Shown: positions 54,994 through 56,997 of the stretch, in pieces
How the letters are laid out: every line of letters begins with the position of its first letter
How positions within the stretch are numbered: the stretch's first letter is position 1
Assembly: GCA_963705295.1 (NCBI GenBank)
Contig: OY970065.1
Span: forward strand, 2,067,911-2,131,910
Source of the DNA: Parachlamydiales bacterium
GTDB lineage: Bacteria > Chlamydiota > Chlamydiia > Chlamydiales > Rhabdochlamydiaceae
Length of the DNA stretch: 64,000 nt
Direction: 5' to 3'
Position numbers and translations under genes: made by a program
Notes under the pieces: generated by a model
The model's input: the letters and a program-made list of their open reading frames with translations, nothing else
Databases searched by the model: none
What the model was told of the DNA's origin: nothing

Positions 54994-55391
54994 TTTTTTT
55001 GCTGATCCTTCTATCGAGTTTTGATTTCTTCACAAAGTCGGCTCCGAAGACGGTTCTTGAAATTGTGAGCGATGAAACCTGCAATGGCGGAATGCCGGTC
55101 TATGTCTTTGTCAAAGAGGTCGAGAAGGGGGAGTTTCTGATCCACAATTATCCCGACATTGTCAAGGAGGCAGCCCCTTTTTCTGAGAAACATACAGCAT
55201 TTTCCCAAGTGATCCTCCCCGGCCGAAAATGCCAACTCGAAATCACCCGCCAAAATCCTGAAAAACTTCTCGGCGTTTATTTCCTTTTCACAAATCCGGG
55301 TGAAGACTGGAAACTCCTGACGGATGCAACACAAAATGTTGAACTTGTTCTAGGCGAAAACCAAATTGCAAAGATTCGAAAAAATGAATAA
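54990..55391 (+). CDS. TssJ/IglE-like outer-membrane complex subunit
   Basis: Signal-like N-terminus, NGGMPVYVFVK, VILPG, LGVYFLFTNPGEDWK pattern; ATGA-coupled to tssM. Confidence 0.6.
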   Translation: MIFLLILLSSFDFFTKSAPKTVLEIVSDETCNGGMPVYVFVKEVEKGEFLIHNYPDIVKEAAPFSEKHTAFSQVILPGRKCQLEITRQNPEKLLGVYFLFTNPGEDWKLLTDATQNVELVLGENQIAKIRKNE

Positions 55392-56997
55392 GTATATCAC
55401 TCCAGAATTTCTAGAGAATTGGCGGTCCGGCAAGTCACAGCTCATTGAAACTGTGATTGCTTGGAGTTATGAGCAGCCGCGGAAATTTTGGGAAGAGCTT
55501 TTTTATCACCTCTCCGATCTAAAAAATAAGAGTATTTTATTCCAATCGTACGATTTTTATGCCGACCTCGTCCTCCGCCATCTTGGGAAAAAAAGAGTTG
55601 CCTATAAATCTTGGGAAAATGGGGCTTTTAAAGAATGGACTTATGACCAAATCCACCGGTGTGTGAACTTTCAATTGCACCGATTAAAATCACACGGTCT
55701 TCAAGCAGGCCAGAAAGTAGCCGTTGTGATGCAAACGGGAATCCACTGTGTGGTCACACTCCTGACACTTCTCAGAATGGGTCTTCGGTTTATTTTTCTG
55801 CCTAGTGATAGCCCCATTTTACCCTCCTCTAGAATCGAGACCCTTCTCCAAGAGATAGAACCCGTTTTGACGATCACAACTGTAGCTATGCCGGGAAAAA
55901 ACCACGTGATCCAATATCTCGAAGAAACTCAAGATTCCCCTGGCTCTTTTGTCTATTCTCCACACGATACCATTGAAGATACCGTCTCTTTTTATACTCA
56001 ACAAGAATACAACCTCAATGTGCTCACGGCTGAAGAAATGTATCTCAGCTCCCTTAGAGATGGGTTCCTTTCTCTCGATTTAAAACCGGAAGTAACGTGG
56101 TTTTTCCCCTCTTCTGAATACCCATCCTCTCTTTTCACTGCTCTTTTCTACGGCGCTACCTGTGTCCATGCTGCAGAAAGCAATCTTCTTGCAAATCCTG
56201 GGCTTTTAGAGGGAGAATCGGTCGACATTATTTCCATCTCTCCGACTCTTCAAAACCTATGGTTGCACAATCCAGGTCTTCCAAAAAAACACCTGAAATT
56301 TTGGTATAAAAATCCTTTCAAAGACAATGGACAGGGATGGATGGCTTTCGTTGAAAAAAACAAAATAGAGAAAGTTCCGATGAGTCAGGTTTTCATCAGT
56401 CACGGAGGTATAGCTCTTTCTTCCCTTCCAACCAAGGAACGGATTCAAGAAGAAGTTTGGCCCTCCTTAGGGACCCCGTGGAAGCTTCTGCAGCTCAACC
56501 TGTCGGGAGCAAAATCGATCTTGCCTTACGGCGTTTTTCAGCAAGAGAAGGTTATTTATAATTTGATTTTAGCACAGTTAAAAAAAGGATGGGTGATCAG
56601 TGGAACCACAGTACCAAATAAAGACGGATATACAATTCCTATCAACACGGTCGAGAAAGAGATCGAGACCCTCGATTTCGTCGCTCATGCTACTCTTCTT
56701 ACCCTTCCCTGTCCTGATTCTATACTTGCTTCTAAAACGGTTCTTTTAATTTTCACCGAGCCGAATTACATCCTGCAAGGAACCGAAACAAAGATCGTGA
56801 ATGAACTGATCAAAAAAACCGTAGGATCTCAGTTTATCCCCGAGACAATCGAATTTTATCCTTTCGCACCCAAAATGTCAGACGGAAAAGTGAACCGGAA
56901 TGAATGTCTTTTTCAGTACACTTCGGGGATGCTGTCTCGCAAAAAAGATCTCGAAGTGTATCAACTCATCAACCTTTTAAGGAGGGCCATTGTATGA
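55384..56997 (+). CDS. Degenerate adenylate-forming (acyl-CoA synthetase) fold protein within the T6SS operon
   Basis: WTYDQIHRCVN..L.SHGLQAGQKVAVVM and PKMSDGKVNR resemble ANL motifs; no TSGxTGxPKG loop. Confidence 0.65.
   Translation: MNKYITPEFLENWRSGKSQLIETVIAWSYEQPRKFWEELFYHLSDLKNKSILFQSYDFYADLVLRHLGKKRVAYKSWENGAFKEWTYDQIHRCVNFQLHRLKSHGLQAGQKVAVVMQTGIHCVVTLLTLLRMGLRFIFLPSDSPILPSSRIETLLQEIEPVLTITTVAMPGKNHVIQYLEETQDSPGSFVYSPHDTIEDTVSFYTQQEYNLNVLTAEEMYLSSLRDGFLSLDLKPEVTWFFPSSEYPSSLFTALFYGATCVHAAESNLLANPGLLEGESVDIISISPTLQNLWLHNPGLPKKHLKFWYKNPFKDNGQGWMAFVEKNKIEKVPMSQVFISHGGIALSSLPTKERIQEEVWPSLGTPWKLLQLNLSGAKSILPYGVFQQEKVIYNLILAQLKKGWVISGTTVPNKDGYTIPINTVEKEIETLDFVAHATLLTLPCPDSILASKTVLLIFTEPNYILQGTETKIVNELIKKTVGSQFIPETIEFYPFAPKMSDGKVNRNECLFQYTSGMLSRKKDLEVYQLINLLRRAIV

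Follow-up and report, generated by a model that had tools for sequence, protein, structure and literature searches.

A conserved pseudoenzyme family with a predicted acetyl-CoA-synthetase fold in a Francisella-like type VI secretion system of environmental chlamydiae and other bacteria

A type VI secretion system (T6SS) can contain an accessory protein with an enzyme fold that no longer catalyzes a reaction. In Acinetobacter, TsmK (AsaB) has a ketoacyl-synthase fold without catalysis and stabilizes TssM-TssL (PMC10564176, PMC13584744); it carries two N-terminal membrane helices and occurs only where TssJ is missing (PMC10564176). TvpD is associated with DUF2169 and with fusions of PAAR to effectors in vgrG islands (PMC13373197). 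In the Francisella pathogenicity island, IglF binds the N-terminal helical extension of IglG (PMC5349215), and the T6SS of this island, subtype ii, is restricted to Francisella by two reviews (PMC13584744, PMC4793230). Here we describe a T6SS cluster in a stretch of 64,000 nucleotides (hereafter the window) from a Parachlamydiales bacterium (contig OY970065.1, positions 2,067,911 to 2,131,910), and more specifically its gene at 55384..56997 (+), which encodes a protein of 537 amino acids (aa) with a predicted acetyl-CoA-synthetase fold of the ANL superfamily, the ANL protein. A first-pass annotation of the window had read it as an acyl-CoA-synthetase-fold pseudoenzyme belonging to the T6SS, which is supported by the fold, the motif loss and the T6SS loci reported below. 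The ANL protein belongs to a real and conserved family of pseudoenzymes, one dedicated to a T6SS lineage related to that of Francisella.

The ANL gene is one open frame, present in one copy in the source genome. Its start codon (ATG, 55384) lies inside iglE, which ends with TAA at 55389-55391, giving an overlap of 8 nucleotides, and its stop codon shares an ATGA (56994-56997), preceded by AGGAGG, with the start of the DUF4280 gene. The tssM/iglE junction is also a common ATGA (54990-54993). These coordinates confirm both couplings claimed by the first-pass annotation, which had named the upstream gene tssJ. That annotation had noticed an ANL-like N-terminal pattern, and Pfam AMP-binding matches residues 71-181 only (expectation value, E, 7.7e-12). 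Its A10-like PKMSDGKVNR is found at residues 496-505, opposite PKTRSGKIMR in the alignment with acetyl-CoA synthetase, and the TSGxTGxPKG adenylation loop that it had reported as missing is indeed not found in the protein. No signal peptide is apparent, and the protein is probably cytoplasmic. We considered the hydrophobic residues 110-135 as a membrane helix and rejected them, because they form a buried A2 strand-helix in the structural model.

This model, built with AlphaFold2 on a 15-sequence alignment, has a mean predicted local distance difference test score (pLDDT) of 90.3 and a predicted template-modeling score of 0.90. Its best Foldseek matches are AMP-forming acetyl-CoA synthetases (E 2.5e-28, template-modeling [TM] score 0.74, 14% identity); the top ten matches have TM scores of 0.71-0.76, and identity to solved synthetases is 14-15%. 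With VIA-align, the model reached a Z score of 30.4 and a root-mean-square deviation of 2.8 over 337 residues, and many ANL enzymes gave Z scores near 30. When 28 family members were combined into a profile and compared with one of six acetyl-CoA synthetases, the two aligned over 495 columns (hhalign, 99.3%). The large N-terminal and small C-terminal domains of the ANL superfamily are both found in the predicted structure, and the product of the 537-aa frame is thus predicted to have the full-length two-domain fold. In an unrooted tree with a small outgroup, a long branch with a support of 1.0 separates 25 family members from 10 ordinary ANL proteins. The structure prediction and active-site comparison suggested by the first-pass annotation therefore gave an ANL fold from which the catalytic motifs are gone.

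ANL enzymes are recognized by an A3 P-loop, (T/S)SG(S/T)TGxPKG, an A5 motif, (Y/W)xxTE, an A7 motif, (T/S)GD, and an A8 hinge, GRxDD; the P-loop, the A5 Thr-Glu, the A7 Asp and the A8 Arg serve AMP binding in active enzymes. The ordinary synthetases compared here match these definitions. We counted the motifs in a set of 28 members and in 146 full-length relatives (152 proteins minus 6 shorter than 480 aa), and the P-loop pattern is present in none of the 28 and none of the 146. From its spacing to the conserved Tyr220, we infer that its equivalent is a hairpin at residues 196-215 (55969..56028, +), modeled as strands 196-202 and 210-215, where the loop FYTQQEY stands against YTSGTTGKPKG. The A5 Thr-Glu and the A7 Asp are missing from the aligned columns of the family, and A5 retains only its GG (133/146 and 143/146). 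At the A8 hinge, there is a gap of 16-17 columns relative to acetyl-CoA synthetase; GRxDD occurs in 0/28 members, and a loose GRx[DK], counted anywhere in the sequence regardless of position, in 20/146 relatives. By alignment to acetyl-CoA synthetase, Lys502 of the A10-like PKMSDGK (56869..56889, +) is the equivalent of the catalytic A10 lysine. Because this lysine is rare in the family (3/28 and 18/146), PKMSDGKVNR is likely a relic.

Other positions are conserved in a family-specific manner. Arg225-Asp226 (56056..56061, +) is the most conserved polar pair (28/28; 132/146 and 141/146), and W307, W319, S347, P360, D504, W507 and G515 are also among the residues conserved in the 146 relatives, as are family-specific C-terminal helices in the ANL family. 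No intact catalytic site, which the first-pass annotation had named as a finding against its proposal, was encountered in either set, and the family very probably has no enzymatic activity, judging from its motifs. An enzyme with a rebuilt active site, acylating or adenylating a T6SS component or effector, would explain why the window protein retains K502 and the P-K pair, and why relatives bear database names such as "AMP-binding protein" or "AMP-dependent synthetase and ligase" (among 20 proteins looked up, in Polyangia, Haliangium, Desulfobotulus and Desulfonatronospira). These names are automatic, however, the lysine is kept in few relatives, and no conserved replacement catalytic set is evident, making this explanation improbable. 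The ANL protein may alternatively be a regulator that binds acyl-CoA, CoA or an adenine nucleotide without turnover, with movement of the C-terminal domain gating T6SS assembly. Both domains are full-length, the A5 GG is kept and R225, D226, S347 and D504 are family-specific conserved polar residues, all compatible with such a sensor, but the loss of the phosphate-binding loop, A5 Thr-Glu, A7 Asp and A8 Arg and the shortened hinge make it unlikely.

The distribution of the family follows that of the secretion system. In the window's phylum, 400 genomes were scored (G005 is an additional, unscored one), and 13 of these carry a full-length ANL orthologue (E<=2e-67), one copy each; the remaining matches are partial, with E>=1e-9. 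TssC is found in exactly the same 13 genomes, which span 6 families and 11 genera and are kin, not independent. The gene co-occurs with the core and, as described below, is encoded in T6SS loci, as a T6SS-associated accessory gene is. In a TssC scan with one genome per species (29 loci), ANL orthologues lay in or near TssC loci of Desulfobacterota (including Desulfobacter vibrioformis DSM 8776), planctomycetes, a Lentisphaerales genome and a deltaproteobacterium. When a fetched locus had no ANL gene, searches of the whole genome recovered one in 4/5 cases, then in 2/2 non-Francisella genomes, and then in 4/5, the last set including two genomes already in the 400-genome sample; the sole non-Francisella miss was both times G404, whose TssC contig is 12 kb. 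No orthologue was found in three Francisella genomes searched whole, nor in the plasmids searched. In the phylum of G405, another 250 genomes were scored with no more than 5 candidates each and gave no orthologue at E<=1e-25, which indicates a patchy distribution of the system in that group.

Word-index homologue searches had returned only three relatives, and it was whole-genome and HMMER searches that revealed the family. At E<=1e-30, the profile built from 28 sequences hits 446 clusters, some perhaps fragments, and the best 150 all have E<1e-104; intact frames measure 487-582 aa across phyla. The best Atlas cluster for the ANL protein is 559 aa long and mostly myxobacterial. Myxococcus xanthus was considered as a carrier and set aside: the available part of PMC5801462 shows a cluster of 13 core genes plus tagF and mentions neither AMP-binding nor acyl-CoA, while the genome itself was outside the search. 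In G401 (L039, L076), labeled Pseudobdellovibrionaceae, TssC, TssM and ANL nest inside the chlamydial clade, reflecting mis-binning or gene transfer.

The ANL gene is under purifying selection. We estimated the ratio of nonsynonymous to synonymous substitution rates (dN/dS) by the Nei-Gojobori method for 11 pairs. Saturation affected four of these, and dS exceeded 2 in another five; the remaining two (dS 1.2-1.4), the least saturated, gave 0.164 and 0.185, against 0.047 and 0.091 for TssM. ANL therefore evolves faster than TssM. In 22 genomes, the trees of the two proteins have 16/19 splits in common, including 12/12 of the well-supported ANL splits, which shows co-inheritance, not contact. 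A dN/dS near 1, the sign of decay that the first-pass annotation had proposed to look for, was not observed. Faster evolution than TssM and an identity of only 14-15% to solved synthetases are what a decaying metabolic gene, in the operon by chance, would show; that explanation is hardly credible, since it is already contradicted by the 13/13 co-occurrence with TssC, the dN/dS of 0.16-0.19, the 446 clusters and the frames that remain intact across phyla. Effectors usually vary. The ANL protein is instead present in single copy with every T6SS of the phylum sample, is co-inherited with TssM and is common to intracellular and free-living lineages, so that a secreted effector is more improbable still than a rebuilt enzyme, even though the gene adjoins PAAR in some loci and IglF, from the same slot, is secreted (PMC5924787).

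Gene order was compared in 29 distinct genomes after removal of duplicates, 27 of them with downstream DNA. The ANL gene lies in a T6SS locus in 28/29 and follows tssM-iglE in 26/29; this triad is kept even in genomes without tssB/tssC beside it in the fetched stretch (L022, L025, L026, L028, L029, L030, L076, L080). The next gene 3' of ANL is more variable: iglI in 7 genomes, PAAR in 6, tssB in 6, tssK in 1, tssF in 1 and an unrelated gene in 6. We also examined 14 metagenome loci, in a scan begun from a second ANL subfamily and not from a T6SS gene; all belong to a single subfamily defined by a motif, and they do not count as independent. Of the 14, 13 contain T6SS genes, the remaining locus being a 2.5-kb contig, and in one locus (L109) the ANL gene is in two frames. 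Homologs lying mostly outside T6SS loci, another finding that would have spoken against the first-pass annotation, were thus not seen in either set. The ancestral order was likely tssM-iglE-ANL-PAAR-iglI-tssG, close to that of the window and broken on either side by lineage; judging by the ANL and TssM trees, breaks seem to have occurred more frequently on the PAAR side than on the tssM-iglE side.

The single copy, the near-universal presence with such T6SS where tested, the intact fold with its dead site, the overlapping genes and the lack of an export signal all fit a non-catalytic assembly factor, and a structural or assembly role is probable for the family. We propose that the ANL protein would be a cytoplasmic assembly factor without catalysis, dedicated to the Francisella-like T6SS. 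Its proposed docking site is the inner side of the membrane complex formed by TssM, TssL and IglE, where it would help to seat the baseplate and the spike, as TsmK does in Acinetobacter. The triad stays together in genomes whose cluster is otherwise dispersed, and in related systems IglE is located in the periplasm, so that the N-terminal NTPase-like (nucleoside triphosphatase-like) domain of TssM would be the neighbor within reach of the ANL protein. TssM as a putative partner is a tentative proposal, and a role like that of TsmK, on the side of the membrane complex that faces the cytoplasm, is likewise plausible without reaching an even chance.

Several points weigh against this proposal. 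The fold of TsmK is unrelated, and the ANL protein differs from it in being predicted soluble, in adjoining an IglE/TssJ gene and in spanning several phyla; none of the features of the TsmK family (ketoacyl-synthase fold, membrane helices, no TssJ) is found in it. The congruence of the ANL and TssM trees is expected of any gene inherited with the cluster. No ANL orthologue was detected in 41 Francisellaceae genomes, 21 of them with an IglG match at E<=1e-20, and a related T6SS is therefore built without it. The triad is broken in three of the 29 genomes: in L047 and L081, ANL is within T6SS loci and is followed by PAAR or iglI, and in L077 (1389-3089; genome G403), an intact orthologue sits between a radical-SAM gene and a phosphoesterase, the T6SS being on another contig (L053). 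In the second subfamily, iglE-tssM is directly 5' of ANL in 0/10 loci with upstream DNA, while PAAR is directly 3' of ANL in 11/11 loci with downstream DNA and iglI is 3' of PAAR in 9/9.

These last arrangements favor a close rival of the membrane-complex proposal, a non-catalytic adaptor of the spike or baseplate that acts as a chaperone for the DUF4280 PAAR tip or as a binding partner of the IglI/TssA-like protein, in the place of IglF but unrelated to it. The ATGA coupling in the window and the occurrence of PAAR or iglI directly 3' in 13/27 genome loci agree with such an adaptor, as does the prediction of PRK06147/TvpD as a PAAR co-chaperone (PMC13373197). However, the next gene is other than PAAR in 21/27 genome loci, the ANL gene is single-copy and not repeated beside PAAR-effector genes, and the consistent metagenome loci come from one non-independent subfamily. 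A predicted ANL-PAAR complex had ipSAE values of 0.10 and 0.06 against a mark of 0.32; run without folded controls, it weighs neither way on binding. The adaptor is possible but rather unlikely, below the docking on TssM-TssL-IglE proposed above. The coupling to the PAAR-like gene put forward by the first-pass annotation thus stands for the window and the second subfamily but not for genome loci generally (6/27), whereas the neighborhood analysis that it had suggested shows a conserved T6SS setting, with tssM-iglE-ANL in 26/29.

The first-pass annotation had also drawn a parallel with the Francisella slot that holds IglF. The position is indeed the same: IglF and ANL both lie between iglE and the DUF4280 gene and are of similar length, the six Francisella IglF proteins (558-584 aa, between vgrG and iglG) being encoded 5' of iglG in 6/7 islands, with the seventh fragmented. 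Homology was not found. IglF gives no match to the ANL family with hmmsearch --max and an hhalign probability of 0.2%, and its model is all-helical (pLDDT 74.5), unlike the ANL fold; an N-terminal likeness (YxxxxxF...DFY) was rejected on these grounds. The DUF4280 domain of the window starts at residue 6, leaving no IglF-binding N-terminal extension. Both results also count against the adaptor, and what IglF and ANL share in this slot is a matter of analogy and not of homology. A single protein of 1061-1113 aa with a C-terminal DUF4280 occupies the iglF/iglG position in some Francisellaceae (L104:7513-10854, L105:7971-11156, L106:1717-4911).

The sheath genes tssB (49548..50099, +; PF05591, E 2.5e-41) and tssC (50096..51610, +; PF05943, E 3.2e-108) precede a tssM/pdpB-like gene (51628..54993, +) for a membrane-complex protein of 1121 aa with an N-terminal Walker A. 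It has no direct family match, but its homologue in locus L050 matches TIGR03348 IcmF (E 1.7e-9), and the Walker A GxxxxGK[ST] is present in 22/22 full-length TssM homologues. The iglE/tssJ-like gene (54990..55391, +) matches IglE_N (E 9.6e-14) and, below cut-off, NCBIfam T6SS_IglE (E 2.2e-9). The lipobox cysteine is missing from its product and from two relatives (L026:8397-8807, L031:4435-4905) and present in most orthologues. Downstream of ANL, the DUF4280 gene (56994..57326, +) encodes a PAAR-like spike tip of 110 aa (PF14107, E 8.1e-21, residues 6-104). Next come an open reading frame (ORF) of 403 aa (57497..58708, +), an IglI-family, TssA-like (ImpA_N) gene (58712..59647, +; NF041244, E 4.3e-58, above cut-off), tssF (59647..61263, +; PF05947, E 5.5e-27), dotU/tssL (61223..61816, +; PF09850, E 2.4e-24) and a tssG-like gene (61806..62603, +; PF06996, E 6.6e-4, below cut-off). 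The 403-aa ORF, between PAAR and iglI, has no Pfam/NCBIfam family, and its GC content of 0.30 (0.22 at third codon positions) compares with 0.44 for the genome; it is a candidate for a recently acquired effector. The nearest TssC relatives of the window, mostly chlamydial records, are 68-77% identical.

The window ends where the single contig of the source genome ends, and the cluster resumes at the contig start (L033:658-6470) with hcp-like, tssK, tssE and vgrG-like genes, suggesting a circular chromosome. Together, 49548-62603 and L033:658-6470 form a complete-looking T6SS split by the contig origin. The hcp-like gene is named by position and likeness to other loci, having no family match; neither the putative Hcp (L033:658-1245, 195 aa) nor the putative VgrG (L033:4389-6470, 693 aa) has a relevant Pfam/NCBIfam match, and automatic tools will therefore under-call this T6SS. 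We saw no clpV among the chlamydial loci that we inspected, whereas a ClpV/ClpB-type ATPase gene is 5' of tssM in Desulfobacterota and Lentisphaerales loci. Between hcp and tssK, L033:1696-2754 (-) encodes a LysM protein with a C-terminal glycine-zipper-like stretch, a candidate membrane-acting effector. Just 5' of tssB, the ORF 48294-49289 (+) matches bacterial EndoU nuclease only weakly (E 0.0024, below cut-off). In five chlamydial loci, an autotransporter-beta-domain family is 3' of ANL or of ANL-iglI (L021:6803-8236, L022:8260-9831, L029:6465-8153, L032:7023-8480, L026:10578-12092).

We found no description of the ANL family or of a chlamydial T6SS in the full-text literature searched, which covered main texts; supplementary tables could hold a mention. 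In its available portion, a 2026 review of T6SS accessory factors (PMC13584744) does not mention synthetase, AMP-binding or adenylation; that of a PAAR survey (PMC8651086) mentions neither AMP-binding nor Chlamydiae; and the portion searched of PMC3482391 contains nothing on the family. An enzyme-fold T6SS accessory is thus of a known kind, exemplified by TsmK, while the ANL family is undescribed in that literature. If our proposal is correct, this would be the second, independent lipid-metabolism enzyme fold co-opted as a T6SS part after TsmK, a different fold and present in several phyla. The family marks a Francisella-related T6SS lineage that is unlisted in current reviews and includes environmental chlamydiae, and its present annotation as an AMP-binding enzyme causes it to be miscounted as a metabolic gene. 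Culturable, non-pathogenic carriers are available in Desulfobacter vibrioformis DSM 8776, Desulfobotulus and Desulfonatronospira. More speculatively, and quite unlikely at present, this lineage (Chlamydiota, Desulfobacterota, Planctomycetota, Lentisphaerales and Myxococcota) might have taken an inactive acetyl-CoA synthetase into its core as an additional subunit that bridges the membrane complex to the PAAR-IglI module, its two-domain cleft reading CoA, acyl-CoA or a nucleotide so that firing would be tied to metabolic state.

Compared with AMP-forming acetyl-CoA synthetase (PF00501; PDB 8rpk, 2p2f, 1pg4), the ANL protein shares the predicted two-domain fold, N-terminal FW and RH elements, the A5 GG and the A10 proline. 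It differs by its lack of the P-loop, the A5 Thr-Glu, the A7 Asp and the A8 hinge, by the loss of the A10 lysine in most members, by its own conserved C-terminal helices and by its setting in T6SS loci. With T6SS subtype ii, the window cluster has IglE-, IglI- and DUF4280-type components in common, IglI scoring above cut-off and IglE above that of Pfam but below that of NCBIfam. In contrast, its TssC is 45-48% identical to that of Francisella, and the system has a long VgrG-like gene, canonical-like TssE, TssF and TssK, and the ANL gene. In a tree of 34 TssC proteins lacking a proper subtype i/iii outgroup, Francisella is on a long branch and weakly placed. The DotU proteins closest to those of Francisella were reported in PMC3326028 from Desulfonatronospira thiodismutans, Haliangium ochraceum and Stigmatella. 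Desulfonatronospira thiodismutans and the genus Haliangium also hold the ANL family. PRK06147/TvpD, which bears a ketoacyl-synthase-like annotation, resembles the ANL protein as an accessory protein adjoining a PAAR-type gene, while ANL is single-copy and within the core cluster. TsmK and the ANL protein, finally, are alike in having the fold of a lipid-metabolism enzyme without its catalytic residues, in co-occurring with TssM and in being less conserved than the core genes.

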